Below are positions 4,022-30,783 of a stretch of 64,000 bases of DNA, in pieces. The notes under the pieces are model-generated. The model had not been told where the DNA came from and did no database searches. It saw only the letters and a list, made by a program, of their open reading frames with translations. Source of the DNA: an uncultured bacterium (GTDB lineage: Bacteria; Omnitrophota; Omnitrophia; Omnitrophales; Aquincolibacteriaceae); contig CAYPIR010000002.1 of assembly GCA_964410905.1 (NCBI GenBank), positions 78,665 to 142,664 on the forward strand, read 5' to 3'. Position 1 is the first letter of the stretch. Each line of letters opens with the position of its first letter. Made by a program: the position numbers and the translations under genes.

Positions 4022-7000
4022 GTGATGCCCAATCTGATGAAAAAACATCTTTCTAAAACCTCAATACAAAGCTGGATTGAATCGCGATTTGTCCGCAGGC
4101 TGGTCGCGTCTTTAGTAGGGGTGTTTTTTATCTCTTCTAACATTCTTTATCCTACCGCCTTTGCAACGCCTAAGCCCATTGCTTTACAAGAAAAAATACA
4201 AAAGAAAGACGGCTTTGAAATACCCGAAAGTTTGGGAACGGTGATAAGCACAAGTTTAAATGCGCAAGAAAAAATACCGAATGTTTTTTTAATACAAGAC
4301 GCGCACGCGATCCCGAGCGCTCAAAAAAACCTTGGAAAATTGACTCAATATTTACAAGAAAATTATGGAATTCAAACGGTCGCGTTAGAAGGCGCGGACG
4401 GCGAAATTGACGCGACTCTTTTTAAAACATTTCCTGACAAACAAAAACGCGATGGATTTTTTAATGATCTGCTTGAACGCGGCGAGATTTCCGGAGTCGC
4501 GACGGCGAGCGTACTTTCTCAATTTCCATCAAAATACATAGGCTTGGAAGATTGGGCCCTTTATCAAAAAGGGACTGAGAGTTTTCTGAAAAGTATGGAG
4601 ACTAAAAGCGAGAAGATTGGAGAACTGGAGCTTTTAAAACAAAATCTTCAAAAATTAAAAAATAAATATTTCTCGAAAGAGCTGCTTGAATTTAACTATG
4701 AACAAACCAGGTGGGAAGAAGAGACAAGGAACATAGCGAGCTTTTTGAAATATCTTCTGCGGTATAAAAACTTAGCAGATACGGAAAGTGAAATTTTAAA
4801 TATTTTAAAAATCATAGACGAAGAAAACAAAGAACTGGATGCCCAAACTAACGCGGAAATAAAAGCGCTTGCGGAGCGAATCGAAAAGAAACTAAAAGAC
4901 AAAACGGAAATAATTAAATTTAATAAATTAAAACAAGAAGTTCAAACCTCACAAATCAACAAAATAGAATTTTTAAGTGAAAGCGTGAAGCTTTTGCCTG
5001 AGGAAATAGCGGATGTCTCGCCGACGGTTTGGCAAAAAGTTTTACAACATAGACGGCTGAACGCTTTGACAGGAAAAGAGTTTTTAAATTCTCTTGAGAG
5101 TTTCCTTGAGAACGTTGAGAAAAATCTTATTTTTTCCAACGCGGAAAAACAAATTTTAAAAATGGACGAGCAGTTGCTTTTATTGGGCAAGCTTTTTAGA
5201 TTAGAACTTACGCGCGGCTCTTTGAAAAAAATAAAAAAATTTTTTAGTGAAAATGTTTCTAGTAAAAATGCTGACATCGCGGAATTAAACGAAAGCATTT
5301 ATAAGTTTGCCAAGAATTCTTCGAATGATGTTTTTTATAATTTTTACAATATAGCCGAAGAGCGCGAAACTGTTTTTGAACAGAAACTTTTCTTACTAAA
5401 GAATTTATCCGACGTTTTAGTTGTTTTGGGCGGGTTTCACACTGACGCGGTAGCGGAAAAGCTCAGGTCTAAAAATATTTCTTACGCGATTATTTCGCCT
5501 GTCATAAAAGACATTCCCGCGGACGATCGCTACCTTAAACAAATGACGGGCAATGTGTCTTGGTCCAAATATTTTGTTTTGAATAATGGACAAATAAACT
5601 TGTATGACTCTTTAGCAAGAGCGTTTGTCGATAATGTTCGTGTCAAAGGCAATGTCGAGGACGCGAAACTTTGGCGTAATGAAATTATCCGTTTACTCGC
5701 TGGACAAAAGAGAGTTTCTGAATACGGTAAATACGCGGCTTATATTGCGGATGAGAATTTTAAAAAGAAAAAATCGGAATGGATTGTCAAACTCCAATCG
5801 TTTATTGAACGGCTCAAGTTTTTTGACCGCAATGGGCAGCTTACCGAACAAAACATTGCTAGCATTTTTGCCGCGCAAACCCATCAAACCCCATATGCTG
5901 TGGCGTCATTTGTGCCCAATACACAAATACAGGTTTCGTTTCCCTCTGCGCAGAATGACAAAACCGTCCGCTCTGAATCAAGAACTGATTTTGAAACGCG
6001 CCGTTCCTTTCGTTTTAACAATCACTATGGAATTCATATTCGCCCCAGTTCACTTCTCGCAGATTTTGCTTGGAAATCATTTGAAAAACTTGGACTGAAA
6101 GTTTCCATTAGAAAAAATAACGAAGAGCTTATCCCGATGACTTCCACTTTTCTTATTCGCGAACTTGGAATTGCCAGCGGCGACCAAATTGAAATTTTAA
6201 TAGAAGGCGAACAGCCTCAAACGCTTCGCGAGCAAGTCGCGAACCTTATTGAACAAGTTATTTCAGATAGCAATATGCTTGAAGAAGAGGGAATTGAGAA
6301 TCCTAAATATGAGTTATACGTTGAAAAGTTAAATAAAATTTCGGAACAGCAGACGTTTGACATTGATGATGCCGCGCAATCCGCTTTAGAAAATAGCAAT
6401 GGACGGTTTTTAAGTTGGATCGCGGAAAAAGGATTTGGAGGAATTGTTAGTTTTGCAAATGCTGCCGCAGACCACTTTTCAAATATTGGGAAGAAGTCTT
6501 TGGATGTGGATTTTGATGAAATCGAGTTTTATTATCAGAATGAAATAGTTCGCGGTTATCCATCTATAAAAAGCCGAATGCTTGGAATTGTAAACACCAA
6601 AGGAATATTTATTTTTAACGCGCGTGTCCAAGATGAAAAGAACGCGCTCGCGTTTGGTATTTATCCTGAGGATTATCAGCCGTCAAGCCGAAGCGGTTCC
6701 GTTGTGAAAATGAGACATAAAAACATTCCAAATCCCGGGCATGGCGATGGAGTTCTTGAATGCGTCTTCCAAAATGTCGGTGAAGTTCCTAAATTGCTGA
6801 TGGTGCCTGTTTTTCCCGGTAGAAAAGCTGCCGCGGAAGATTTTAGAAAATATACTAGCGATGCCGCGAGACTTGCCAGATTTTTGATTGTGGCTGGAAT
6901 GCCTAAAGCCACCCGCCTTGATGAAGCGACTCAATACGATATTGTTGATTTTATAAAAAAAGGCGGCGGCGACATCCGTTCGGAGCAGCTTCAAACGCTT

Positions 7001-10000
7001 AACGATTTGATCCGTCTTGATGAAGAAGATTTTCTTGAATCTAATTTTGAAAATGATGCTGATGAACAAATTCAGCGAAGTGAGACGCGCGGCAAAAGCG
7101 ATAGCCGGCAAAACTTGGGGGAAATTGAATTTTATGTGCGCGACGAAATGAAGTCGAAGGAAGAGACCAAAAAATTTCTTGCTGAAATTAATGCCAGTAA
7201 TAGAGAGTATATTTTTGTGGCGAAACAGCCAGAAGAAACTCTCCAAATAAACTTTGGAGTTCGCGGCAGTGATTTTCATGATGAACTTGGTTCTGAGATA
7301 GAAGGTTCTTTGTCCGGTGTGATTTATTCAGAATCTGGCGAGCGGGAAATTATTTTGGTGCCCAATTTCGAGAACCGCGTTTTTGGAAATTTTGGAAAAG
7401 CAATTAAAGATATAAAAAGAGTCTCGGGAATTTTAATTGAAAATGGATTGTCAAAAGATATTAAGATCGGTAAAGGTAACAAGAACGGAATTGCCAAGCT
7501 TTACAGACAGGCATTTGATAGTGAACCGCCTAGTTTGCCAGAAACGCTTGGTGATTTAGCCGAACTAATAACTAAGGATGAAATTGACGCAAGACGAGTT
7601 CAAGAGAGCATCGCGAAAAGTGAAGTTCGAAGCTATAGCGAAAGCAATTTTATAAATAAATCCCTAAACGCGATGAAAAAACTCCCTCCTGCCGTAAATG
7701 GCAAACCTCAGAAAGTAAGCGTGGTGATCTCTACAAAAAATGGTGATAGGTTTTTTTCTCCGGAAGAAAACAGAAACGGGCAAGACTCGCTTCTTGTAAA
7801 GATAGAGCAGCTTCAAGAGCTCTTTTCGCTCAATCCATCATATGACTGGGAACTTATTATTGTCGATGACAATTCGCCAGACGGACGAACGGGAAAACGA
7901 ATTTTAGAAAAAGCGAAGCTGCTCTATCCTGATGATGTTGAGAAAGGAAAAATCCGCGTCCTTTTTTCTCAAAATAAAGAGAGTAGAAAAGGCGGAGCTA
8001 TAGTTTATGGGATATCAGACGCGCTGAGCGAATATTCTGACTATATTGTTTACACGGATGTGGATTTATCAACTGATTTGCGGCAAATAGGATTATTGCT
8101 AAACAGTCTTGTAGTTGAGAAAAATGGAATTGCCATCGGTTCACGAAGGCTAAAAAAATCCCAAACTATCGGCAGGACAAATTACAGAGAATTTTCCAGC
8201 TGGTTTTACAATAATCTCGTAGGGCTGATTCTCCCGCTTTTGAGAAATATAAAAGACACGCAATGCGGATTTAAAGCAATGAGCCGTGATGCCGCGCTTG
8301 AAACGATGCCTTTTGTAAAAGATTTCGGGATGTCTTTTGACACGGAAATTTTGTTGCTCGCCAGAGAAAAAGGGTTATCAATTGAAGAGATTCCAATTTA
8401 TTGGGAGGATTATCGCGGCGGAACATCTATTGTGGTCGCGAGCGAGACATTAAAAATGATTCAAGGGTTGCTAGATCAAAGCTTGCGGCATCAAATTCGT
8501 GAATCCCAATATTGGCCTATAGGAACACAGAAACCTTTGGCAATGATAGCGACTCAAGCCGCTAAAGAAGCAATATCTGTACTGAAAGCGATTTTAAAAG
8601 GTTTTATGCCATTGAGGGAGATTGCGGAAAGACCTAGCGGCGTCAAAATTGGCGAGGAGTTACGTTCAATTGAAAATAGTAAAAAAAATCTCGCGGAATT
8701 TATCAAAAATGGAACGAAAGGAAAATTTTGGGCGGAGGATAAAACATCTGTTGAAGACAAAATCGCGATTATTAATAGCGATTATGGCATAAATCTTCTT
8801 AGCGATAGCGAAGTGGTGCTACTCGAGGGCTTTTCGGATAGACCACAGCGTCCGATCTTAATAACAGCTCAAGATGGAAAACAGTATGTGTTCAGACGAT
8901 TTTTTACAGACTTAGAAAAAACTAAATTTGTAGTTTCGTATCAGAAACATTTTAATCAAAAAAATATCGATGAAGTCCCGCGGCTTATTCCGCGTAAAAA
9001 TATGTCGGGCGATCGGGCTGAGGATTATGTTTCTAAAATAGGAGATTATTATTATGTTCTTGAAGAAGCTCGTTTTGAAGGTCATATAGTCGATTACAAG
9101 GACGCGACAGAAAAACATTTTGAAACCATAGGAAAAACCATCGCTCGATTCCAAAATATCTCAGACGGTTTTGCCCCTGAAGGAGAGAAAACGGATGAAA
9201 CGTTAATAGGCGTTTTGAAGGCTAGAGATGATTTGGAAACGTTGCTGAAACTAACGAAACGGAAAAGTGAAATCGCAGGGTTTGAAAATTTATCGTCTGC
9301 TGAAAAAATTTTTATCAAAGCAATTCCATTTTTACTTCAACAAATGGAAATTTTAAGCGCAAATCTCCCAGAATCTCTTTACGAACAATTACCCCAAGCG
9401 TTGACCGAATGCGATATTGGTTTTCACAATATGCGATTCAGTGAAAATGGTGAAGACGCGCCTTCGGTTTACGATTTTGAACTTGTCCGCAAACAACCGC
9501 GCATTCAAGATTTTAGAAATTCAATGACAACTTTTGGGATGTCAACGGGACGCAGATATGACCGTAAGCTAATGGAAGGAATTTTAGGCGGATATGAAAA
9601 AGCGATTAAAACACCTTTGACGGAAGAAGAAAAAAGAGCAATCCCGGAAATCATACGCGGAACATTTTTGTGGACGTTTGTGGGGCTTTTTTTTGTTCAA
9701 GAAGAAAAAATCAATAATAATGAAAACCTTAGAAAGACAGTAGAATTATCGTTTGCCGATTTTCAAAAATTTGCTGAGGATTTTTCGAGCGGGAACATCA
9801 TTGGATTGTCATCTGATGCGGCTCAAGGCGATGGTGCGATAAGAAGCGAAAACCTCTCTGACGACTATCGTCCTTCGCTTATGGCGGAATTGCTTTTTAT
9901 TTCTAACCAAATCGAGGATATCCAAATTATCTTAAATGAATTAAGAAAATTTAGGCACAGCGATGAAGAACAACAAGCGTTAGAAAAAATTGAACAAGCT

Positions 10001-13000
10001 TTAGAAAGAGTATCGTTAGAAGTGATGCAATTTGTAAATGTACAGGGAGATTTTTATGATGAGGAAGGTTATTTTAAGAATGTGTCGGAGGCTTGGAAAG
10101 AAGCTAGACGATGTTTGAATGGATATTCGGAAATAGCCTCGGAAGAAAAACAAAACCGCATTAAAGATGTTGATGTTCGCTTGTATCGTCTAGCGTCGCG
10201 TTTGGCGGGTCTTTTTGAGGCTAAGGAAGTTGCTGTTGTCGAAGAAATAGGGAAGGTTGAAAAAATAAATGACGCGGATGATTTTGAGGGATTTGTCTCT
10301 GATCTTTTGTATAGGCTTAATAAAGACAGTTCGAATTATATTTTTTTGACAGAGATTTTAAAAAATCCACAAAAATATGAAACGAATTTTTTAAATCATA
10401 TTGGCAAAATGATTCTTGGTAAATTAAGCGAAGACTTTGATTCTGCGAAGCAGTTTGTGGATTCTTCTCAGCTGATTTTAGATAAAGAAGGGTTTATGTC
10501 TTGGCGCAAGGCGTTAGTTGAAAACAACAGCATGTTTGTGAAGGAGTTTGAAAAGATTGTGCCAAAAAGAAAAGATGTTTCCATAGATCTTTATGGACAA
10601 ATGCTCTTTTTTATCGGAGAGGGATTTGATCGTTATTTTGAAATTATTTATGACAAGCTTATTGGAACAAAACCTCCTGTAGCTATTTATAACCCTAAAC
10701 GTTCATATCATGCGCGTGCAATGAGCTCGGTTCATATGCGGACAAAGCATTTGCTTTTTGGCGAGAAAACAGCAGACGATAAATATAAAGACAGCCGAAT
10801 AACATACTTGGATGACGAATTTGATCAGCGGTCGTCCGCCAACGCGGAAAAAGTAAAAAAAGCAATTAATATATGGAAAGATGTCGCGGCTAAAGACAAA
10901 CTCGAAATGCTGAGAAGAATAGACAATTTTCTCGAGACAACTTGGGTTGAAGAAATTGCGGAGCAAGGTGAAAAAATATCACCACTTGTGTTGATAGTGG
11001 CTGATGCGGAAGCAAACGTTGCGCGTGTTGTCCACACCGACAGATTGTCCAGGACATTGTTTTTTACTAAAGCGTATTTAGACACGTTAGATATAAATAA
11101 CGATGCTGACATGAGAGAACTGGCTGTTTGGCTTAATGTAAGCCAGAACTGGTTAGACCAGAGCGAAAAGAAATCAGCAGATGTGTCGAATTTGGAAAAC
11201 GATAGAAAAGTAGAAGACAATAAACAAGATTTGAATCGCCGTTTTTTTGAATTGGAAGACACGGGGCTGCTTTCCACGGATGAATTAAAACAAAGGCTTA
11301 GCCGTTTGATGAGAAATCATATTTTGAATCGATATCATTTTTTTGTAGGACGAGTGGCAGAAAAAGAAGAGCAGGCTTTCAAGTTGATAAAACTGGGAGA
11401 ACAGCGGATTCGTGATTTCTCCAAACATCCCGAATGGAATGAAGTCGTGGAATTGCGAGATCCTTTTCGCGATGCGGTAAAACCGCTTAAGGATTTAATT
11501 TTTCAATATGAGGCAATGGGAATGCGCAAGCAAGTTGATATTGCGTTTCAGCGTTTTCTTTACGCTATTTCAATGGTGCAGAAATTTGATCCAGGCGGAC
11601 TTTTGCCTTGGGGATTCCAGGTGGATTTGATTTTTATGTCCCTCAGACTTGATTATTGGGGACACTTTAAAAATGAAGTCGAGCTGTTTCTTACAGGCAG
11701 AGAATCGGATACTTGGGAGCCGAATGCGCGGGAAAATCAAGAAGAACAAAAAAGTTGGAAACGCGGATTTTGGAGAAGAGGGTTTCCAAGAAAGTTTTCA
11801 TCAATTAATGCTTACGAAATAGAATATTACTCGCTGCGCGCTAATGGTTGGCGTTTTTTTAGGCGTCTAAAATTAGAAATGATGGCGCAACTGAGTGCTT
11901 CATATCCTGAGCACCGCTTAAAGCGAAGTGCTATAGTGCGAAGCATTTACGAGCTTCTTGAAGAGTCGCAAAAGAATCCTTTGAAAAGTTTGAAAGAAAA
12001 GATAGCCGCACGAGGAGAGGCTTTAGAACTCGAAGAACTTTTCCCTAAGGCGCGGTCAGTGGAGCGTGAAATAAATCCGCTTGGAAGCAAGCTTGAAACA
12101 GGGGATGGAATGGTAGTTTACGATATTGAAAACGCAAAGAGTCGTCCAAGTGATTTGTTTGAAGAAGAAAAGCCTTGGTGGGTTTGGGGAGGCTCTAGCG
12201 GGCTTATCCGTTATTCGTCTTGGTGGAACGCGTTTCGTAGCCTTTTGCATGTTTATGAAACGGAGTTTAATCGTCTGCCTAAGCATCCCGAGGCGAAAAA
12301 CAAGTTAAATAAATGGAAAAATGTTTTTGCCAAAGACTTGTTGGAAATCGGGGGAATGAAATTTGATAAGTTGAAAACAAAACTAAGCTTGATTGAAACA
12401 AAATTGAGCGAAGGAAACATTGATGCTGTCCGGAAAAACGCGTTTGGTTTGAGACGACTCAGATGGCTGCGTTCAGAGCCTGAATTAAAACCCATGATAA
12501 ATCTTGCGGAGGAAATAAGCCGTTTGGCGGAGGATTCGCCTATTCGTAATAAAATAAAAATGGAAGAAGTAATTAAAAAGTTGAAAGAACGGCTTGCTCT
12601 GGCGGAAAGTTTGATAACCTTTCTAAGGGTTTATCACGAGATTTATTTTAAGTTGAGAATGGAAGAACAAGTACCGCATAGCTTTGCGGTTGATAAGGCT
12701 TTTAGAATGTCTTTAGAGAAATGTCGGGAAACGACAGACGCGATGAAATTACTTTTCTTTCAGTTTGTTTATTTTTCCAGAAAAAGAAACGCAAGTGATT
12801 TTGAATGGTTGTCGCATGTGATTATGTCGACTTTTGTCCGAAAGAACACACAACAAATGCTGCTTCCTCTCGATGAATCTTTCGTGATTCCCCAAAATGT
12901 GGAACGGCAAGCGTTGCCTGAAATTGTCAATGTGTTTATTCGAGTTTTGGATCTTCACAAAGATTTAATTACCCCAAATGGCTATGAGAAAATAGACATT

Positions 13001-13924
13001 GATGGAGCTGTTTTCCGTTCGGAAACTAGAGCGAAAATAATCGAGACTATTGTCGGGAGTGCTGTTGAAAATAAAAAACCGAATGATGAAACCGTTCAAA
13101 AATTCCGCTCGGAAATTTACAGCGAGGGGTTGGAAACAATAGAGAAGCGGCTTTGGGACGCATTTAACAATGTTTTTATCCCGACCGCGATGGCGAATAT
13201 AACGTCCGATGGGCTATTGGTGAACGCTTATGCCGAATTGGAGAAAATGCTTGTTGAAAGTAAAATTTCTTCAACCGAATTTAGCAACGCGGCGGATTTT
13301 ATATTTAACAACCAATTGAAAAGTCTTAGTGAATCTATAGAAAAAAAAGAGATAGAGGTCGCCGCGCCGATTATATTTTATTCGAATACGGAAATTATGC
13401 GTAATAGGCTGTTTGAATTTATTAAAACTATTCAGCAAGGCTTAGAATCGAATAATTATCAAATCTTTATTGTTTGTGAAAGCCGCAAAGAAGTTCAATC
13501 TCTTAGGACAGAACTTGGGCAACGGAAAATGTCGCAAGGGGTGAGAGTTTTAGGGGAAGAGGGAATGGATAACGCGGTCGAAGAAATGAGGAAATCTGTT
13601 TTTGAAAATAAAAAATTCAGTGAATCTTTTGGAGCTTTCTTTCCTTCAGGCGATGTGGCGATGAAAGTTACTGATTGGAAGCGTAAGGTTCATAACGAAA
13701 TTCCTGAAGAGTATGCTATGTTATTGCTGCCCGCGCTTACGAAATATTTTGCGGTGACACGAAACAAGGATTTGAACAGTGAAACTCTTGCCATCGCTTT
13801 GCAAAAAGCGTTTCCTGATATTTCTTCTTCTGTTAAATTTCAAACAGAACGCGGGATTGTCATTGCTATAGAGGTTTTGCAATCTATCATAGCCGCTGTT
13901 CGGCAGATTGCGACAGCTGCGTAG
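4022..13924 (+). CDS. giant 3300-aa multidomain protein: signal peptide/anchor + TraB/TIKI-like + HPr-like + GT2 glycosyltransferase + kinase-like + long unassigned helical C-terminal region
   Basis: One uninterrupted 9903-nt ORF. All antisense ORFs across it are short and low-complexity. The N-terminus has a basic n-region, a hydrophobic stretch and AFA-TP. The embedded domains are listed as separate features below. Confidence 0.8.
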   Translation: MMPNLMKKHLSKTSIQSWIESRFVRRLVASLVGVFFISSNILYPTAFATPKPIALQEKIQKKDGFEIPESLGTVISTSLNAQEKIPNVFLIQDAHAIPSAQKNLGKLTQYLQENYGIQTVALEGADGEIDATLFKTFPDKQKRDGFFNDLLERGEISGVATASVLSQFPSKYIGLEDWALYQKGTESFLKSMETKSEKIGELELLKQNLQKLKNKYFSKELLEFNYEQTRWEEETRNIASFLKYLLRYKNLADTESEILNILKIIDEENKELDAQTNAEIKALAERIEKKLKDKTEIIKFNKLKQEVQTSQINKIEFLSESVKLLPEEIADVSPTVWQKVLQHRRLNALTGKEFLNSLESFLENVEKNLIFSNAEKQILKMDEQLLLLGKLFRLELTRGSLKKIKKFFSENVSSKNADIAELNESIYKFAKNSSNDVFYNFYNIAEERETVFEQKLFLLKNLSDVLVVLGGFHTDAVAEKLRSKNISYAIISPVIKDIPADDRYLKQMTGNVSWSKYFVLNNGQINLYDSLARAFVDNVRVKGNVEDAKLWRNEIIRLLAGQKRVSEYGKYAAYIADENFKKKKSEWIVKLQSFIERLKFFDRNGQLTEQNIASIFAAQTHQTPYAVASFVPNTQIQVSFPSAQNDKTVRSESRTDFETRRSFRFNNHYGIHIRPSSLLADFAWKSFEKLGLKVSIRKNNEELIPMTSTFLIRELGIASGDQIEILIEGEQPQTLREQVANLIEQVISDSNMLEEEGIENPKYELYVEKLNKISEQQTFDIDDAAQSALENSNGRFLSWIAEKGFGGIVSFANAAADHFSNIGKKSLDVDFDEIEFYYQNEIVRGYPSIKSRMLGIVNTKGIFIFNARVQDEKNALAFGIYPEDYQPSSRSGSVVKMRHKNIPNPGHGDGVLECVFQNVGEVPKLLMVPVFPGRKAAAEDFRKYTSDAARLARFLIVAGMPKATRLDEATQYDIVDFIKKGGGDIRSEQLQTLNDLIRLDEEDFLESNFENDADEQIQRSETRGKSDSRQNLGEIEFYVRDEMKSKEETKKFLAEINASNREYIFVAKQPEETLQINFGVRGSDFHDELGSEIEGSLSGVIYSESGEREIILVPNFENRVFGNFGKAIKDIKRVSGILIENGLSKDIKIGKGNKNGIAKLYRQAFDSEPPSLPETLGDLAELITKDEIDARRVQESIAKSEVRSYSESNFINKSLNAMKKLPPAVNGKPQKVSVVISTKNGDRFFSPEENRNGQDSLLVKIEQLQELFSLNPSYDWELIIVDDNSPDGRTGKRILEKAKLLYPDDVEKGKIRVLFSQNKESRKGGAIVYGISDALSEYSDYIVYTDVDLSTDLRQIGLLLNSLVVEKNGIAIGSRRLKKSQTIGRTNYREFSSWFYNNLVGLILPLLRNIKDTQCGFKAMSRDAALETMPFVKDFGMSFDTEILLLAREKGLSIEEIPIYWEDYRGGTSIVVASETLKMIQGLLDQSLRHQIRESQYWPIGTQKPLAMIATQAAKEAISVLKAILKGFMPLREIAERPSGVKIGEELRSIENSKKNLAEFIKNGTKGKFWAEDKTSVEDKIAIINSDYGINLLSDSEVVLLEGFSDRPQRPILITAQDGKQYVFRRFFTDLEKTKFVVSYQKHFNQKNIDEVPRLIPRKNMSGDRAEDYVSKIGDYYYVLEEARFEGHIVDYKDATEKHFETIGKTIARFQNISDGFAPEGEKTDETLIGVLKARDDLETLLKLTKRKSEIAGFENLSSAEKIFIKAIPFLLQQMEILSANLPESLYEQLPQALTECDIGFHNMRFSENGEDAPSVYDFELVRKQPRIQDFRNSMTTFGMSTGRRYDRKLMEGILGGYEKAIKTPLTEEEKRAIPEIIRGTFLWTFVGLFFVQEEKINNNENLRKTVELSFADFQKFAEDFSSGNIIGLSSDAAQGDGAIRSENLSDDYRPSLMAELLFISNQIEDIQIILNELRKFRHSDEEQQALEKIEQALERVSLEVMQFVNVQGDFYDEEGYFKNVSEAWKEARRCLNGYSEIASEEKQNRIKDVDVRLYRLASRLAGLFEAKEVAVVEEIGKVEKINDADDFEGFVSDLLYRLNKDSSNYIFLTEILKNPQKYETNFLNHIGKMILGKLSEDFDSAKQFVDSSQLILDKEGFMSWRKALVENNSMFVKEFEKIVPKRKDVSIDLYGQMLFFIGEGFDRYFEIIYDKLIGTKPPVAIYNPKRSYHARAMSSVHMRTKHLLFGEKTADDKYKDSRITYLDDEFDQRSSANAEKVKKAINIWKDVAAKDKLEMLRRIDNFLETTWVEEIAEQGEKISPLVLIVADAEANVARVVHTDRLSRTLFFTKAYLDTLDINNDADMRELAVWLNVSQNWLDQSEKKSADVSNLENDRKVEDNKQDLNRRFFELEDTGLLSTDELKQRLSRLMRNHILNRYHFFVGRVAEKEEQAFKLIKLGEQRIRDFSKHPEWNEVVELRDPFRDAVKPLKDLIFQYEAMGMRKQVDIAFQRFLYAISMVQKFDPGGLLPWGFQVDLIFMSLRLDYWGHFKNEVELFLTGRESDTWEPNARENQEEQKSWKRGFWRRGFPRKFSSINAYEIEYYSLRANGWRFFRRLKLEMMAQLSASYPEHRLKRSAIVRSIYELLEESQKNPLKSLKEKIAARGEALELEELFPKARSVEREINPLGSKLETGDGMVVYDIENAKSRPSDLFEEEKPWWVWGGSSGLIRYSSWWNAFRSLLHVYETEFNRLPKHPEAKNKLNKWKNVFAKDLLEIGGMKFDKLKTKLSLIETKLSEGNIDAVRKNAFGLRRLRWLRSEPELKPMINLAEEISRLAEDSPIRNKIKMEEVIKKLKERLALAESLITFLRVYHEIYFKLRMEEQVPHSFAVDKAFRMSLEKCRETTDAMKLLFFQFVYFSRKRNASDFEWLSHVIMSTFVRKNTQQMLLPLDESFVIPQNVERQALPEIVNVFIRVLDLHKDLITPNGYEKIDIDGAVFRSETRAKIIETIVGSAVENKKPNDETVQKFRSEIYSEGLETIEKRLWDAFNNVFIPTAMANITSDGLLVNAYAELEKMLVESKISSTEFSNAADFIFNNQLKSLSESIEKKEIEVAAPIIFYSNTEIMRNRLFEFIKTIQQGLESNNYQIFIVCESRKEVQSLRTELGQRKMSQGVRVLGEEGMDNAVEEMRKSVFENKKFSESFGAFFPSGDVAMKVTDWKRKVHNEIPEEYAMLLLPALTKYFAVTRNKDLNSETLAIALQKAFPDISSSVKFQTERGIVIAIEVLQSIIAAVRQIATAA
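4270..5530 (+). other. TraB/GumN/TIKI-like domain inside the giant ORF, with a large coiled-coil insertion
   Basis: The N-terminal motif VFLIQDAHAIPS matches the family GTxHV signature. The following …TVALEG… matches V.vEl. The C-terminal motif DVLVVLGGFHTDAVAEKLRSKNISYAII matches vvVGagHl.G…L…Gy.v. Confidence 0.35.
5996..6270 (+). other. HPr-like phosphocarrier domain inside the giant ORF
   Basis: FRFNNHYGIHIRPSSLLADFAWKSFEKLGLKVSIRKNNEELIPMTSTFLIRELGIASGDQIEILIEGEQPQTL aligns to the HPr consensus N..GlHARPA…KS.m.lm.LGi..G..i.i.aeG.de. The active-site His in GIHIRP is conserved. Confidence 0.6.
7710..8480 (+). other. GT2 glycosyltransferase domain (DPM1/GtrB-like) inside the giant ORF
   Basis: VSVVISTKNG…WELIIVDDNSPDGRTG (DXD), GGAIVYGISDA…DYIVYTDVDLSTD, and QCGFKAMSRDAALE are typical GT2 family-2 motifs. 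Confidence 0.7.
8800..9700 (+). other. protein-kinase-like (APH/choline-kinase family) domain inside the giant ORF, possibly catalytically atypical
   Basis: The N-lobe LLEGFSDRPQRPILITAQDGKQYVFRRF matches the PF01636 consensus L.gG.sN..y.v...dg..yVlRr. The catalytic segment IGFHNMRFSENGEDAPSVYDFE has Brenner-motif H-N-M in place of H-N-D, with the conserved Asn and DFE retained. Confidence 0.4.
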
Positions 13925-22017: not shown

Positions 22018-22590
22018 ATGAAGACTAAAATTGAAGCGCGGATCAAAGGGCATTTGGATGCGTTCTCGAAGACTTTTTTTGCCGAGCAATATGAAATAAT
22101 GGAAAAAATGTCCCGCGCGATTATTCAGACGCTGAAAGCGGAAAATAAAATTCTTTTGTGCGGGAACGGCGGTTCCGCGTCCGACGCGCTTCATGTCGCG
22201 GCTGAATTTGTCGGCAGATTTGAAAAAAACAGACGAAGTCTTCCCGCCATTGCTCTTACGGCAGACATTGCGGCGTTGACTGCCATAGGAAATGATTTTG
22301 GCTATGACAAAGTTTTTTCGCGGCAAGTAGAAGGATTGGGAAAGAGAGGAGATATTCTTATCGCGATTTCGACTAGTGGAAATTCTCGTAATGTTTTAGA
22401 GGCCGTAACTCAAGCCAAAGAACAGGAAATTTTAACTTTCGGATTTACGGGAAGAGATGGAGGCATTTTAAAGGACGCCGTGGACATTTGTTTTTTATCT
22501 CATGCCGACAAGACGACTTATATTCAAGAAACGCATATCGCGGCGCTGCATATTATTTGTGAATTGGTGGAATCGGTTCTTTTTGGATAA
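22018..22590 (+). CDS. gmhA: phosphoheptose isomerase (SIS domain)
   Basis: LLCGNGGSASDALHVAAEF…ISTSGNSRNVLEA. Confidence 0.8.
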   Translation: MKTKIEARIKGHLDAFSKTFFAEQYEIMEKMSRAIIQTLKAENKILLCGNGGSASDALHVAAEFVGRFEKNRRSLPAIALTADIAALTAIGNDFGYDKVFSRQVEGLGKRGDILIAISTSGNSRNVLEAVTQAKEQEILTFGFTGRDGGILKDAVDICFLSHADKTTYIQETHIAALHIICELVESVLFG

Positions 22591-22591
22591 A

Positions 22592-23068
22592 ATGAAAAAT
22601 ATAAAAATTTTAAATTCTTGTCTTCTCGGAAAAGTTTTAAAATCCATAAAATTAAAAAAAAAATCTATAGCGTTTACGAACGGAACATTTGATATTTTAC
22701 ATTTGGGGCATATAACCTATCTTGAAAAAGCCAAACAGACGGCGGATGTTTTGATTGTCGGAGTAAACACCGACCGTTCCGTAAAAAGTTACAAAGACCC
22801 ATCGCGTCCTATAAATCCTCAGAATGATAGAGTTAAGGTTTTGTCAGCATTGGCTTGTGTGGACTATGCAATTCTTTTTGACGAACCGACGCCTCTTGAG
22901 CTTATAAAAAAAATCCGTCCCGATGTTTTGGTGAAAGGTGCCGATTGGGCGGTAAAAGACATTGCAGGAGCGAAAGAAGTTTTATCTTGGGGCGGAAAAG
23001 TCCGCCGTATTTCGCTTGTCAAAGGACGCTCGTCAACTCGCGTTATAAAAGCGCTTAATCTCGCCTAG
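22592..23068 (+). CDS. D-beta-D-heptose 1-phosphate adenylyltransferase (stand-alone HldE domain II)
   Basis: Cytidylyltransferase fold: FTNGTFDILHLGHITYLEKAK…VGVNTD. ATG at 22592 is 1 nt after the gmhA stop; the upstream extension of the ORF has no plausible start. Confidence 0.7.
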   Translation: MKNIKILNSCLLGKVLKSIKLKKKSIAFTNGTFDILHLGHITYLEKAKQTADVLIVGVNTDRSVKSYKDPSRPINPQNDRVKVLSALACVDYAILFDEPTPLELIKKIRPDVLVKGADWAVKDIAGAKEVLSWGGKVRRISLVKGRSSTRVIKALNLA

Positions 23069-23070
23069 CG

Positions 23071-23751
23071 ATGACGAAAAAACATCGCTTACTTCTTCAA
23101 AAATCGTTACTTTACGCCGTTACCAATTTAAAAATAAAAGACGACAGCATTATCGAAAAAATTGATTCGGCATATCGCGGCGGAGTGGATATTGTTCAGT
23201 TGAGATCGAAGGTTTTGACGGATTCAGAACTTATCCGGTTGGGCTTAAAAATAAAAAAAATCTCGGCAAGACACGGAAAGATTTTTATTGTGAACGATAG
23301 GATTGATATTGCAGCCGCTTGTCATGCGGATGGCGTTCATCTTGGGCAAGACGATTTATCGATAAAAACCGCAAAGACGATTTTGCGCAGAATAGACGAA
23401 AACATTTTAGTAGGAAAATCCACGCATTGCGTAAGGCAGGCTATTGAGGCTGAAAAGGAAGGCTCTGATTATATAGGCGTAGGCCCGGTTTTTTCTACTC
23501 CCACAAAACCGAGCGTTTTGCCCGTCGGGCTAAGATTCATCAAAGATGTTACCCCGCAAATCGAAATTCCATATTTTGCAATAGGCGGAATAGATGAAAA
23601 TAATTTAAACGATGTTTTGAGCGCGGGAGCCAGCCGAGTGGCCGTTGTGCGTGCTATTTTTGATAAACGAAATCCCGGTAAATCGGCTAAAAAAATAAAA
23701 GAAATTTTAAGCAATAAAACGAAAGGACTACGAAATGTTAAAAACTCCTAG
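23071..23751 (+). CDS. thiE: thiamine-phosphate synthase
   Basis: YRGGVDIVQLRSK, VNDRIDIAAACHADGVHLGQDD, GPVFSTPTKP. Confidence 0.8.
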   Translation: MTKKHRLLLQKSLLYAVTNLKIKDDSIIEKIDSAYRGGVDIVQLRSKVLTDSELIRLGLKIKKISARHGKIFIVNDRIDIAAACHADGVHLGQDDLSIKTAKTILRRIDENILVGKSTHCVRQAIEAEKEGSDYIGVGPVFSTPTKPSVLPVGLRFIKDVTPQIEIPYFAIGGIDENNLNDVLSAGASRVAVVRAIFDKRNPGKSAKKIKEILSNKTKGLRNVKNS

Positions 23752-24649
23752 TTTGGTGGTAATTGGAACAGTTGCTATAGATGAGTTGTCTACGCCGTTC
23801 GGCGCGAATAAAACGGTTTTTGGAGGTTCGGGAACTTATTTCTCATATGCGGCAAGTTTTTTTACTAGGGTTGGAATTGTCGCGGTTGTGGGCGAGGATT
23901 TTCCGAGAGAATATCGAAAAATTTTGGAAGAAAAGGGAATTGATTTAAGTCATTTGAGCACTTTGCCCGGAAAGACTTTTCATTGGAAAGGGAAATACGA
24001 AGCGGATATGAATTCGGCGATTACTTTGCAGACGGATTTGAATGTGTTGCTGCAGTTTAATCCGGAACTTCGTTTTGCAACTTCGCCCGAATTTGTTTTT
24101 TTGGCAAATATTGATCCCGATTTGCAATTGAAGGTATTGGATCAAGCTCATGGTTCAGCTTTGAAATTTGTAGCGTGCGACACGATGAATTTTTGGATAC
24201 AGAATAAACGGGACTCTGTTGAGAAAGTCTTAAATCGCGTCCACGCAGTTTTTATGAATGACGCGGAAGTCAGACAGTTTACGGGCGAAGTGAATTTAAT
24301 CAAAGCCGCGCAAGCGATACATAATAAAGGCCCTGAGTATGTGATTATTAAAAAAGGCGAACACGGAGTTTTGCTCTATAGCCACGAGGGGGTTTTTGTT
24401 TATCCCGCGTATCCTCTTGAAACTGTGTTTGATCCGACCGGAGCGGGAGACAGTTTCGCGGGCGGTGTTATGGGATATTTGGCATCCGCAAAAAAAGTGA
24501 ATCTTAAAATTATGAAAACAGCCATTGGCTATGGAACTATTGTCGCGTCTTTTACGGTAGAAAAATTTGGGCTTGAAAAACTTCGCGAAATAAAACGCGA
24601 GCAATTTGATAATCGCTTAAATATTTTGAAAAAAATTTGTAAAATTTGA
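23735..24649 (+). CDS. PfkB-family sugar kinase (candidate heptose-7-phosphate kinase / HldE domain I equivalent)
   Basis: Ribokinase fold with GG motif (VFGGSGTYF) and DPTGAGDSFAGG. The specific substrate assignment rests only on the neighbouring gmhA and adenylyltransferase. Confidence 0.6.
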   Translation: MLKTPSLVVIGTVAIDELSTPFGANKTVFGGSGTYFSYAASFFTRVGIVAVVGEDFPREYRKILEEKGIDLSHLSTLPGKTFHWKGKYEADMNSAITLQTDLNVLLQFNPELRFATSPEFVFLANIDPDLQLKVLDQAHGSALKFVACDTMNFWIQNKRDSVEKVLNRVHAVFMNDAEVRQFTGEVNLIKAAQAIHNKGPEYVIIKKGEHGVLLYSHEGVFVYPAYPLETVFDPTGAGDSFAGGVMGYLASAKKVNLKIMKTAIGYGTIVASFTVEKFGLEKLREIKREQFDNRLNILKKICKI

Positions 24650-28211: not shown

Positions 28212-28661
28212 ATGAAATTGGCTAGCCTTGAACGCAGACGCGTTTATAGGATTAAGAGGATTCTTGATAAAGTTGAAGAAACATATATCGCTGGAATATT
28301 GCGCGAAAATTTCTGGGAGGCAAAGGATCGCCACTGCAAAATCACTGATTTGTTGGAATCCGATGCGTTTGTTTATGGAGAAAAGAACCGTCGTATTTTG
28401 TTGCGGCATTCCGAACTAGGGACAATTCGCCTTGTGTATAAAGATAAGGGCGTGTTCAAAGAAATACTTGCCGATTGCGTAGATTTTTCTCATCAAGGGA
28501 TGTGTTTTGAATCAGAAGTCTCGCCTGTCGCGGGTGAATATTATAACGCAACAATTTATTTTTTTAATAAACCTGACCCTGTATATGCCTCTGGGCACAT
28601 TGTTTGGATAAAAGATTTTATGCCGGGTGTGTTTTTGTCCGGTATGAACTTTGACAAATAA
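28212..28661 (+). CDS. PilZ-domain protein (putative c-di-GMP receptor)
   Basis: RxxxR (LERRRVYRIKR) followed by DxSxxG (DFSHQGMCF). GGGAGG SD 12 nt before ATG 28212. Confidence 0.5.
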   Translation: MKLASLERRRVYRIKRILDKVEETYIAGILRENFWEAKDRHCKITDLLESDAFVYGEKNRRILLRHSELGTIRLVYKDKGVFKEILADCVDFSHQGMCFESEVSPVAGEYYNATIYFFNKPDPVYASGHIVWIKDFMPGVFLSGMNFDK

Positions 28662-28682
28662 TCACTTCTTGTATAAAAACAA

Positions 28683-28727
28683 AATCCGATACCTTCTGAC
28701 TTTACAGAAAGTATCGGATTTTTTTTA
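28683..28727 (+). terminator. Rho-independent terminator after the nrdDG-PilZ unit
   Basis: aatccgataccttctg-acttta-cagaaagtatcggatt: 16-bp stem with one mismatch, then a T8 run. Confidence 0.7.
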
Positions 28728-28920
28728 ATACACTTTTATTATCAGAATGGGTTCTGAAACTCCTTGTGAGGGGTTATCTTGAGCCCCTCCTCTGCGCACT
28801 TGTTATAGAACTTTTGTTTTAGTCCTTCTTGGTTAGTTTCCATAAAATTACTATTTAGTAATCATTCCTATTTGTCAACTGTGTTAATTAACAACAATGG
28901 AAATGACTACATAGATCGTT

Positions 28921-28934
28921 CCCCCCCCCCCCCC
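28921..28934 (+). repeat. homopolymeric C14 tract
   Basis: Read directly: 14 consecutive C in a non-coding region. Confidence 0.9.
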
Positions 28935-29030
28935 TTCTGTATAACAGACGTTTTCCAGTGAAGCAAGCGGTCTAGATCAACAGGCGGGATATGAGGAGAT
29001 GTTTATCAAGATCCGGTCTTTTCTCCTGAG

Positions 29031-29761
29031 CTAACTGTCACGGTGTTTTGTGTTCCTTGTAAGAGTTGAGTCTGTAAAGATTGAAAAAGAGCTGGGCATG
29101 TGTGAGTGAGCGTTGATTGGCGAAAGCGAGAAAAAGGACGCCGCAGGATACCTCACGATAAGTGTACTAGACCTTGGGAAGACCGCAGGACTTGGTCTGG
29201 AGGAAATGCTCGGGAATATCCATAAGGTCTTTGGTGTCCTCCATGTCAAACTGGAAGAGTTGAAAGAGTTTTTTAACAACTCGGAGATTGTTTTTGGCGA
29301 CGTGTTTCTTAGGTCGCCTTCTCGAACGGATTAGTTCAGCACCAACGCGTTTGTAGGTAAGCTTTAGGGTGATGACATGGTTTTTGACAGACTGGGGGGC
29401 TCTTGGAAAATGAAGCGCTCCGCGGGAGCAGTCAGCAAGACCGAAGTAGCCTTAGGCATTGAATCGGTGAATCCATTTTCCGATAATAGGCGGGCTTGCG
29501 TGAAAAGACTTCGCGGCAGGTTTGACGCTATGTGAGAAGACGTATTGGAGCAATTGTTATCGCCACTGTTTTTTATCTTTCGTGTGTCGCAAGATTTGAC
29601 TGTGTTGGTATGGACAGATGCAGTTTAGACCTTCTTTGGTTTTGGAGAGACTTTAGGAGTTCTATTAAGTGCCTTTTTTCTTTTTCAAGGTTGATATTTT
29701 CGGTTTCGACTAAATCGTTGTTACCATTTTCTGACTTGCTCCCGGCGGCGTAAGTTGGCAT
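29031..29761 (-). mobile_element. degenerate IS630/Tc1-mariner-like transposase remnant (HTH region, interrupted by stops and frameshifts)
   Basis: Minus-strand translation across ~29370-29500 gives …VFSHSVKPAAKSFHASPPIIGKWIHRFNA*GYFGLADCSRGALHFPRAP…, resembling the IS630 N-terminal HTH …vS..tV.kWv.RfneeGl.GL.DrprsGrP. Local GC is visibly higher than flanking DNA. The + strand ORF 29113..29334 is probably its antisense shadow. Confidence 0.3.
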
Positions 29762-30016
29762 CGTTACAGCGGATAGCGTTTATTGGTTCATAAGGCGTTT
29801 GGGACACAACATTTTTAGTTTTTTCGCCGGCGAGGAGATATGTCCTTTTTCGGCTTTTTCCGTGTTGTTGATAGTTTGAGCAACTGCTGAAAAGAAATAA
29901 AACTCTGATAAACCTCGTCTCATACCTTGGGATTAATACACAAAATCTTTAAAATTCGCTCTCACACAGAGGGTAACGATCTATGGTGCCATTCTCAAAC
30001 AATTAATAAATAGAGT

Positions 30017-30045
30017 TTGACAAACAGTTGTAGATGGTAAATACT
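30017..30045 (+). promoter_or_regulatory. candidate sigma-70 promoter for cspA with a ~185-nt 5' UTR
   Basis: TTGACA (30017-30022), then a -10 as TAAATA at 15 nt spacing or AATACT at 17 nt. Long leaders are typical of cold-shock genes. Confidence 0.35.
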
Positions 30046-30229
30046 CCATATGCTTTTTTAGGAGGTAAGGCGATTTGCAGTCTGCAATTAGTTTCCCGCC
30101 AAAGAAAGTTCCTTGAAAAAGGATCAGTTTAGCAAGACCAGTTCCAACTGTAACAGGTTGATTTTTGCTGTCGTGAAGGTTGAACTTGTCATGCATTAAA
30201 ATCAATACAAATAAGGAGCAACATCAATC

Positions 30230-30430
30230 ATGGTGCAAGGTAAAGTAAAGTGGTTCAACAATTCTAAAGGCTACGGTTTTATTTCTCGCGAAGGCGGAGC
30301 AGATGTGTTCGTTCATCATACCGCAATTCAAGGGGAAGGCTACAAGTCTTTGGAAGAAGGTCAAGCGGTAGAATTTGAAGTAACCAAAGGACCTAAGGGC
30401 GAACAAGCGTCTAATGTTGTAAAGCTCTAA
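30230..30430 (+). CDS. cspA: cold-shock protein
   Basis: [14 protein letters not shown]…VFVHHTAI: RNP1/RNP2 motifs. AAGGAG RBS. Confidence 0.9.
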
Positions 30431-30451
30431 GAACCATACTTGGAACTGGAA

Positions 30452-30487
30452 ACCCCGATAGGCTTCGGCTTATCGGGGTTTTTTATT
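30452..30487 (+). terminator. Rho-independent terminator after cspA
   Basis: aaccccgataggc-ttcg-gcttatcggggtt, then TTTTATTTT. Confidence 0.75.
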
Positions 30488-30783
30488 TTGGGGACACCTC
30501 TATCCCGTAAATCGGTTTAGGCAGCAGCTCGTTTGCGTCATATCATAAATAGAAAATGTTTGTCCTTGAAAATGTATATAAAAAATAATAAAATGTGTAA
30601 AAAATTTGATTGAAAGCGATGCTTTTTTTTATTTTTTTGTTCCTCATTTTGACGCCTTCAATGAATCCTCATAAGCAAGGCCTCGTGTTGAAGTTTAAAG
30701 GGGTAATACGAATTTAGTTTGTGGCGGGGTGTGTAAATTTTTAAGTTTTGAAATTCTAACTTCAAACATAAAGGGAATATCAA

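Follow-up and report, generated by a model that had tools for sequence, protein, structure and literature searches.

The 64,000-nucleotide stretch of DNA analysed here (the window; positions 78,665 to 142,664 of contig CAYPIR010000002.1, assembly GCA_964410905.1) comes from an uncultured bacterium of the phylum Omnitrophota and contains a giant open reading frame (ORF) with a glycosyltransferase family 2 (GT2) domain in its middle. The ORF runs uninterrupted over 3300 codons, with a GTG start and an ATG at codon 2, and NCBI holds an identical protein of 3299 amino acids (aa; P0001) on a 147.7-kb contig. We propose, with moderate confidence, that the domain is a competent, non-processive, inverting GT2 enzyme of the polyprenyl-phosphate type, which travels with an APH-type kinase as a cargo cassette of an Omnitrophota giant protein and carries out a single hexose transfer from a nucleoside diphosphate (NDP) sugar to polyprenyl phosphate at the membrane surface.

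4022–13924, plus strand: giant ORF hosting the GT2 domain
7634–8521, plus strand: GT2 catalytic domain (GT-A fold) with both interface-type helices, aa 1205–1500, from Pfam, the PDB match, alignments, AlphaFold2, Foldseek and a profile

An apparently intact GT2 domain in the giant ORF

A sequence-only reading of this DNA had placed a complete Dpm1/GtrB-like GT2 domain at nucleotides (nt) 7710–8480, which correspond to aa 1230–1486 of the giant ORF, and had named a failure of Pfam to call GT2 over this segment as grounds for giving it up. Pfam does call Glycos_transf_2 (PF00535) there, over aa 1254–1425 (nt 7781–8296; E 1e-12, 48.7 bits against a gathering cut-off of 23.3), so the GT2 call stands. 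The full domain is somewhat larger than first proposed, adding an N-terminal helix and a C-terminal amphipathic helix, and it matches a profile made from 120 relatives with an E-value of 1.6e-79. Structural modelling, suggested by the same reading as a check, returned a GT-A fold: the AlphaFold2 model of aa 1205–1500, built from 121 sequences, has a mean predicted local distance difference test score (pLDDT) of 92.7 and a predicted template modelling score (pTM) of 0.91. Foldseek gave 256 PDB matches to this model at E ≤ 0.001, and those listed are GT-A enzymes. The dolichyl-phosphate mannose synthase of Pyrococcus furiosus (PfDPMS) ranked first (E 6e-14, template modelling score 0.66), followed by ArnC and GtrB and, further down, by GpgS and MpgS. 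PfDPMS was also the sole match when the PDB was searched by sequence with the GT2 domain (E 3e-8).

All invariant and nearly invariant columns of the 121-sequence alignment are kept in the query. The nearest database relatives among the 120 best matches are 32–38% identical to it over about 85–95% of the domain. That these positions survive at so low an identity (about 35%) speaks for purifying selection acting on catalysis. The domain is thus complete, apparently intact, and looks catalytically competent, as had been argued earlier from its motifs. Taken by itself, it is unremarkable within an enzyme class that is well understood.

To assign roles to individual residues we used the HMMER alignment to PfDPMS, together with the residue roles described for that enzyme, in which Asp39 binds the base, D89 and D91 form the DXD motif, Gln93 contacts metal and diphosphate, and Arg117, Arg131 and Ser135 hold the lipid phosphate (PMC5526996).

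7859–7885, plus strand: IVDDNSPDG, nucleotide-base-binding motif; D1282 is the PfDPMS Asp39 equivalent, and the motif is not a DXD
8054–8071, plus strand: TDVDLS, the true DXD; D1346 and D1348 align with D89 and D91 of PfDPMS, and S1350 stands where PfDPMS has Gln93
8144–8200, plus strand: R1375, R1389 and S1393, equivalents of the acceptor-phosphate triad Arg117, Arg131 and Ser135 of PfDPMS
8255–8275, plus strand: DTQCGFK, active-site motif whose D, Q, G and K do not vary among 121 relatives
8435–8509, plus strand: C-terminal amphipathic helix resembling the second interface helix (IFH2), aa 1472–1496, helix 268–292 of the model

The three strings quoted by the sequence-only reading (IVDDNSPDG, TDVDLSTD and QCGFK) are present exactly, and it is their labels that change. 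IVDDNSPDG had been taken for the DXD; it aligns instead with the nucleotide-binding motif around PfDPMS Asp39, so that TDVDLS is the DXD. The string TDVDLSTD (nt 8054–8077), which had been called the second acidic motif, contains this DXD. QCGFK is a conserved active-site motif; DTQCGFK aligns with 154-DPVSGFF of PfDPMS, and the name acceptor loop, which QCGFK had been given, refers to something else in the DPMS literature.

Within the triad, R1375 (R171) is invariant in alignment A1 and conserved to at least 90% in A2, R1389 (R185) reaches at least 90% in A2, and Ser is the majority residue in A1. R1389 and S1393 sit within a helix resembling the first interface helix (IFH1; nt 8180–8230), whose hydrophobic sequence FSSWFYNNLVGLILPLL is conserved. 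AlphaFold2 models helices at both the IFH1 and IFH2 positions. For the IFH2-like helix the hydrophobic moment is 0.52 (family mean 0.47) and the net charge is +1 (family mean +2.7).

The domain belongs to a single-transfer clade

The nearest relatives are stand-alone bacterial and archaeal proteins, either of a soluble type (230–275 aa) or longer (380–440 aa) and extended by GtrA or other sequences. The name dolichyl-phosphate beta-glucosyltransferase is attached to several of them, and in a subset the GT2 is joined to the GtrA membrane domain. With this ALG5/DPG-synthase-like clade the query has in common a DADLST-type DXD, GSR, DTQCGFK and FDTE, and it shares a subclade-specific insertion after beta1 with P0121–P0136. 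Unlike the query, none of the 120 best matches lies in a giant protein or bears a kinase. The genes around the closest stand-alone GT2s (P0124, P0125 and P0126) are unrelated, with no kinase, GtrA or glycan genes nearby; the gene immediately downstream of P0124, in particular, is not a kinase. Since the relatives are annotated as glucosyltransferases, the donor of the query is probably not GDP-mannose.

PfDPMS (PDB 5MLZ/5MM1), itself a GT2 enzyme, is the best match in both sequence and structure. It shares with the query the GT-A core, the DXD, the nucleotide-binding Asp, the Arg/Arg/Ser lipid-phosphate triad and, as modelled, helices at the interface-helix positions. Identity is only 22–25%, however, and the query lacks the four-helix transmembrane domain of PfDPMS and is embedded in a 3300-aa protein, fused to a kinase. 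The undecaprenyl-phosphate enzymes GtrB and ArnC share the fold class of the query and its predicted type of reaction (Foldseek E 1e-10 to 3e-9) but are only 16–18% identical. GtrB and ArnC are tetrameric and have two C-terminal transmembrane helices, whereas the query module has none. A parallel in this respect is offered by human DPM1 and transmembrane-truncated PfDPMS, which, like the query GT2, are catalytic domains without a transmembrane part of their own. Human DPM1 is recruited by DPM3 (PMC5526996); no such membrane partner is known for the query. The closest relatives and the retained clade residues together support the DPM1/GtrB-type assignment made by the sequence-only reading.

That reading had gone on to suggest processive or scaffolded glycan synthesis in a membrane-anchored protein, which our analysis does not bear out. 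Enzymes of this clade carry out single transfers. The QxxRW motif, by which processive GT2 synthases of the cellulose, chitin and hyaluronan synthase type are recognised, is absent from aa 1205–1500. Between aa 48 and 3278 the giant protein has no hydrophobic segment of transmembrane level, hence no channel-forming helices near the GT2 domain, and Pfam identifies no second glycan-synthesis domain (glycosyltransferase, polymerase, ligase or flippase) anywhere in it.

The GT2 domain is paired with an APH-type kinase

An exhaustive HMMER search with aa 1495–2694 resolved this part of the protein into two recurrent modules, an APH-type kinase and a segment that we call module X. The kinase lies immediately downstream of the GT2 domain in the same polypeptide and is a conserved partner that had been missed before.

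8684–9796, plus strand: APH-type kinase module (protein-kinase-like fold), aa ~1555–1925, from Pfam and HMMER

The kinase module recurs in about 75 proteins. In the query its Pfam APH score of 22.3 bits falls just below the cut-off of 23.2, and relatives reach E 3e-19. D1798, N1803 and D1818 are retained, whilst R1625 (nt 8894–8896) stands in place of the beta3 ATP-binding Lys found in 16 of 18 relatives, and Glu replaces the His of the HxD motif. The loss of the beta3 Lys makes the activity of this copy uncertain, and the query may carry a weakened kinase or a pseudokinase.

A clade-specific GT2 profile matched 12 other proteins from that search, in which the GT2 and the kinase occur together in either order. 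This co-occurrence indicates that GT2 plus APH-type kinase (aa ~1205–1940) is a conserved evolutionary unit. Three proteins of 820–920 aa (P0258, P0271 and P0306) look like its minimal stand-alone version: GT2 and kinase are the only domains identified in them, and they are laid out as a signal-like N-terminus, a conserved [CA]LRP, GT2, kinase and a C-terminal ..AA. Two of the three, P0271 and P0306, also have the query's unusual insertion after beta1. In the query the cassette begins without a signal or anchor sequence and is bordered by two short delimiter motifs, KSEVR (aa 1199) and a degenerate RSENL (aa 1941), described below. The pairing has no characterised counterpart and hints at an unstudied pathway of lipid-linked sugars, or sugar phosphates.

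A head, cargo and tail family in Omnitrophota

A search with the whole protein gave 173 matches, of which the best 120 were listed and 119 homologues were used for family counts. The listed homologues are nearly all 1900–5700 aa long, and nearly all of those with names are assigned to Omnitrophota/Omnitrophica. By blastp they align only to aa ~50–650 of the query, most covering aa ~50–500, with coverage tapering to 650. This conserved head, the signal-like sequence before it and a C-terminal tail frame the remainder of the protein.

4022–4165, plus strand: Sec-signal-like N-terminus, aa 1–48, with a basic n-region, a hydrophobic core (aa 27–47) and AFA before TP
4166–5968, plus strand: conserved head module, aa 49–649, from blastp coverage, alignment and an AlphaFold2 model (pLDDT 83)
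13031–13924, plus strand: tail module of ~297 aa, which closes with an amphipathic helix followed by ...ATAA-COOH

The head has the invariants QDAH, EG, R and GGFH and is interrupted by a helical insertion of ~280 aa. A scan of species-representative genomes, a set outside which the query's own genome falls, confirmed 206 head loci, with as many as 5 or more in a genome. Those with a taxon name are nearly all from Omnitrophota; a locus labelled 'Planctomycetales' and, among the protein matches, one named 'bacterium F11' stand apart. A link of the head to the erythromycin-esterase/ChaN/Tiki-like fold is a weak lead: EreC, 3b55, ChaN and HopBA1 rank within the first 15 Foldseek matches, but with E-values of 0.3–3; in one relative the GGFH region is matched by DUF5694 (E 3e-4) and by Erythro_esteras (E 0.14), and a head profile search against the PDB was negative.

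The N-terminal segment is the sole strong hydrophobic segment of the query besides the extreme C-terminal helix. Signal-like N-termini occur in 98 of 102 family members, with a charge of +2.7 before the core and −0.6 after it and AxA-like sites. That of the query resembles a cleavable Sec signal more than an anchor and lies about 1150 residues upstream of the GT2 domain, which speaks against the membrane anchoring proposed earlier.

The start of the query tail is 48% identical to that of P0267, a 6573-aa protein, and 66 of the 119 family members (about 55%) end in [AS]A. Tail homology is marginal; jackhmmer included the query only at round 4 (E 2e-4, in a 67-sequence database). Endings of the ..AA/..SA type recall C-terminal degradation or secretion tags.

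Whilst the layout of head and tail recurs in more than 100 homologues, the Pfam cargo between them differs widely and includes M48 plus ABC1, EI, HPr, methyltransferases, response regulators, radical SAM, phosphoglucomutase and J domains. Because the same scaffold bears such different enzymes, embedding in it is not specific to glycan synthesis, contrary to what had been read from it. By this architecture the query is a member of an Omnitrophota-restricted, multi-copy family of conserved head, variable cargo and tail. On this evidence, mid-sized Omnitrophota giants (2–6 kaa) would form one paralogous family in which a conserved exported head and a conserved tail surround freely exchanged cargo, giving a handle for classifying 'multi-enzyme' giants that recent surveys have only catalogued. 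In one locus (L004, contig k141_2069052) the 5335-aa P0012 is directly followed by a giant gene listed at 7909 aa and running past the fetched locus, so giant genes can be adjacent.

The closest described proteins are the 'multi-enzyme metabolic cluster' giants of the same phylum (Nielsen & Lui 2026 and West-Roberts et al. 2023, preprints). Like the query, these have many unrelated enzyme Pfams along one chain and a predicted signal peptide and/or transmembrane segment; the surveys set their lower size limit at 10,000 (or 30,000) aa, against 3300 aa for the query. The shared head, the delimiter, the AA-ending tail and the GT2–kinase cassette were not found described in these two preprints.

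A pentapeptide delimits modules of the giant proteins

Outside the head, the only enriched pattern across the 119 proteins was the pentapeptide R-S-E-[LVMA]-R (RSExR), observed 287 times against 9 expected. It has an A/S/P/G-rich upstream flank, and in 36 of 48 proteins a copy closes the head. The median spacing between copies is 349 aa; from the last copy to the C-terminus the median distance is 290 aa.

5969–5983, plus strand: delimiter RSESR, aa 650–654, at the end of the head
7076–7090, plus strand: delimiter RSETR, aa 1019–1023
7616–7630, plus strand: delimiter KSEVR, aa 1199–1203, immediately 5' of the GT2 module
9842–9856, plus strand: degenerate delimiter RSENL, aa 1941–1945, in an A/G-rich linker just after the kinase
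13016–13030, plus strand: delimiter RSETR, aa 2999–3003, before the tail

We infer that RSENL is a decayed delimiter. A DNA-level origin of RSExR, as a recombination or repeat element, was ruled out: synonymous codons vary among its 14 instances in P0012, which places conservation at the protein level. Some modules start with their own Sec/Tat-like signals right after a delimiter. An early, crude test for signals or anchors after RSExR was not significant (p = 0.09 and 0.16), whereas a stricter positional test found a signal-like segment after 6.0% of motifs against 3.4% of controls (p = 0.018). This enrichment is suggestive only, because the positional test was designed after examples had been seen. 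Taken together, these features make RSExR a candidate processing or recognition site.

Two preprints on Omnitrophota giant proteins speculate on cleavage into several products (bioRxiv 10.64898/2026.06.07.730766; 10.1101/2023.11.21.568195), and one of them states that the cleavage points are unknown (10.1101/2023.11.21.568195). A word search of the other (bioRxiv 10.64898/2026.06.07.730766) found no mention of motif, linker or cleavage. RSExR thus offers concrete candidate points where the literature calls them missing (10.1101/2023.11.21.568195).

Other modules of the protein

The remaining parts of the query include an HPr-like domain, a duplicated domain without known function and module X.

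6002–6253, plus strand: HPr-like domain, aa 661–744, with GIHIRP (His15 and Arg17 equivalents), Pfam PTS-HPr E 3.4e-7
6488–7030, plus strand: ~170-aa domain without known function, copy 1, aa 823–1003, from BLASTP
7091–7579, plus strand: ~170-aa domain without known function, copy 2, aa 1024–1186, from BLASTP
10253–12001, plus strand: module X, aa ~2078–2660 (~580 aa), from HMMER recurrence

The HPr-like domain begins 7 residues after a delimiter and scores 30.6 bits against a Pfam cut-off of 23; NCBIfam TIGR01003 remains below its own cut-off. A domain of this kind also stands at the N-terminus of P0267. EI (phosphoenolpyruvate-utilising) domains occur in other family members, and with the HPr-like domain here a relay of the phosphotransferase system (PTS) type may be built into these giant proteins. 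The two ~170-aa copies are 24% identical (pairwise BLASTP E 3e-6), and the domain recurs in P0267. Module X matches about 45 proteins, mostly other giants, with E-values down to 2.6e-83; representatives have no Pfam family, and the query module has no PDB relative. P0267 shares with the query the HPr-like domain, the duplicated ~170-aa domain, GT2, module X and the start of the tail, which suggests that these modules travel together. PDB sequence searches with aa 1501–1960, aa 1961–3300 and the head yielded nothing useful. A word-indexed homology search with aa 1496–2999 gave no match, a weak negative, as it missed the query's own protein for sub-segments too.

Genes around the giant ORF

Every ORF scanned in the 64-kb window lies on the plus strand and is of a housekeeping kind wherever a family was assigned. 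On the 5' side of the giant ORF are holA, murJ and uvrC, the gene for MurJ, the lipid II flippase, being ~1.5 kb upstream and followed next by uvrC. On the 3' side are metH, DUF1844, a PF03706 membrane protein gene 4 kb downstream (preceded by metH and DUF1844), aroQ, accBC and ADP-heptose genes, and further on nrdD, PFOR, smc, recA, alaS, his, trp and mreBC. No glycan operon, WecA or secretion-system genes were found among the ORFs scanned, and a GtrA domain was found neither in those ORFs nor, by Pfam, in the giant protein. The sequence-only reading had suggested looking for a downstream flippase or for WecA-type genes; no flippase or WecA gene is linked within the window, and the surroundings of murJ and PF03706 are a housekeeping context, not a glycan operon.

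Proposed mechanism and alternative explanations

By homology to PfDPMS, a divalent cation held by TDVDLS would position the diphosphate of an NDP-hexose, whilst R1375, R1389 and S1393 would hold the phosphate of polyprenyl phosphate between two amphipathic interface helices on the membrane surface. The polyprenyl phosphate would attack C1 of the sugar, yielding a polyprenyl-P-monosaccharide, and the GT2 domain would act together with its fused kinase. PfDPMS from which the transmembrane domain has been removed (delta230-352) is still membrane-targeted and fully active (PMC5526996), so the missing transmembrane segment near the query GT2 is compatible with a lipid acceptor.

Several points weigh against a polyprenyl-phosphate GT2 acting as part of a cargo cassette. 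Its lipid acceptor, donor and activity are predicted from homology, and two PfDPMS residues, Gln93 and Lys178, are not conserved (S1350 and, at the Lys178-aligned position, a Ser). GpgS and MpgS, GT-A enzymes with other phosphate-bearing acceptors, are also significant Foldseek matches. The Arg in place of the ATP-binding Lys may mean that the cassette is partly degenerate in this copy, and the delimiter after the kinase is degenerate. RSExR is itself a putative cleavage site, with few motifs (6% against 3.4%) preceding signal-like segments. Finally, a Sec-signal-like start with no further transmembrane segment would, read naively, export the GT2 domain to a compartment without NDP-sugars.

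The cassette would need nucleotide-activated substrates. What the cargo requires as substrates, and the signals that follow some delimiters inside the chain, are easier to reconcile with modules being released at RSExR, or failing that with cargo that stays in the cytoplasm. We put forward, as a tentative possibility, that the giant ORF encodes a bacterial polyprotein of exported head, modules and tail that is cut at RSExR, each piece following its own signal or staying in the cytoplasm. The GT2–kinase cassette would then be freed as a peripheral membrane enzyme of ~740 aa that makes, and perhaps phosphorylates, a polyprenyl-P-sugar. If this is true, the polyprotein would represent a phylum-wide alternative to operons, and RSExR would be the first defined set of cleavage points for Omnitrophota giants. 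Whether the protein is a scaffold or a polyprotein decides in which compartment enzymes such as this GT2 work.

It is also conceivable, although we consider it unlikely, that the same fold serves a different acceptor, the GT2 domain glycosylating a soluble phosphorylated metabolite, sugar or protein in series with the kinase, perhaps with the HPr-like phosphocarrier, and with no lipid carrier. The module has no transmembrane domain or GtrA partner, it is conservedly fused to a kinase of a small-molecule (APH family) type, and HPr, GT2 and module X occur together again in P0267. The significant fold matches to GpgS and MpgS, which use 3-phosphoglycerate, and the C-terminal helix, less basic than the family mean, point the same way. 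Sequence comparison, however, groups the domain with polyprenyl-P transferases and not with GpgS or MpgS. Fusion to GtrA is seen in close relatives, and the PfDPMS lipid-phosphate triad and the hydrophobic IFH1-like helix are conserved, all of which favours the lipid acceptor.

An improbable alternative of another kind is that the protein is an exported effector. The whole chain would be translocated by Sec and delivered to a host or prey, where the cassette would use the victim's NDP-sugars and ATP, for example to sequester undecaprenyl or dolichyl phosphate by glycosylation, in a layout like that of multi-effector toxins cut between their domains. In MARTX-type architecture, conserved ends flank variable enzyme cargo, and the conserved head and tail around variable enzymes resemble this. 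By analogy only, MARTX toxins and viral polyproteins share with the query family conserved ends around interchangeable enzyme modules and short conserved junctions. Signal-like N-termini are family-wide and also open P0258, P0271 and P0306, and the query has no second transmembrane segment. Omnitrophota have, moreover, been read as host-dependent or predatory, with most of their giants predicted to be secreted or membrane-associated (bioRxiv 10.64898/2026.06.07.730766; 10.1101/2023.11.21.568195). The resemblance to MARTX is nonetheless one of layout: in the query, Pfam detects at E ≤ 0.1 no domain for the MARTX hallmarks (glycine-rich repeats, inositol-phosphate-activated cysteine protease, type I signal), no translocation or pore-forming repeats, and no autoprotease or any other recognised protease domain. 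The family cargo, furthermore, looks metabolic and regulatory rather than toxic, consisting mainly of housekeeping-type cytoplasmic domains (HPr, EI, response regulators, methyltransferases, phosphoglucomutase, J domain) and not of known toxin domains. Internal Sec/Tat-like signals after delimiters would make little sense if the chain were already outside, and the gene lies among housekeeping genes, with no secretion-system genes in the 64 kb.

That the GT2 domain is a decayed passenger, a relic that has kept its structure but not its function within a rapidly evolving giant gene, appears very unlikely. The partner kinase has lost its canonical ATP-binding Lys and HxD His, one delimiter is degenerate, and the family cargo is highly fluid; against this stand the full set of retained GT2 positions at such low identity and a very confident predicted fold. 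Largely refuted, finally, is an assembly line in which the domain takes part in processive or scaffolded synthesis of glycan or lipid-linked oligosaccharide: the very large multi-domain protein with its N-terminal hydrophobic segment and the nearby murJ and PF03706 genes might have suggested it, but the protein has a single glycosyltransferase domain with no QxxRW, channel-forming helices, polymerase, ligase or flippase, its scaffold holds unrelated enzymes in homologues, and murJ–uvrC and metH/DUF1844–PF03706 are housekeeping neighbours.

Other observations in the window

Positions 22018–24649 contain genes whose domains are of the kinds found in ADP-heptose synthesis (SIS_2, cytidylyltransferase-like and PfkB kinase). 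They are interleaved with thiE and suggest a heptose pathway of the lipopolysaccharide core in the source organism. A tRNA scan of the window found zero tRNA genes, and Rfam gave zero matches at gathering thresholds. Positions 28661–30783 form an ORF-poor stretch. An Rfam match to the cspA thermoregulator at 30097–30482 on the plus strand (72.6 bits against a gathering score of 78, E 9e-18) overlaps a 66-codon ORF at 30230–30430 that is probably a cold-shock protein gene. The long gene-like ORFs of the window all lie on the plus strand, and most 2-kb windows show a positive GC skew.

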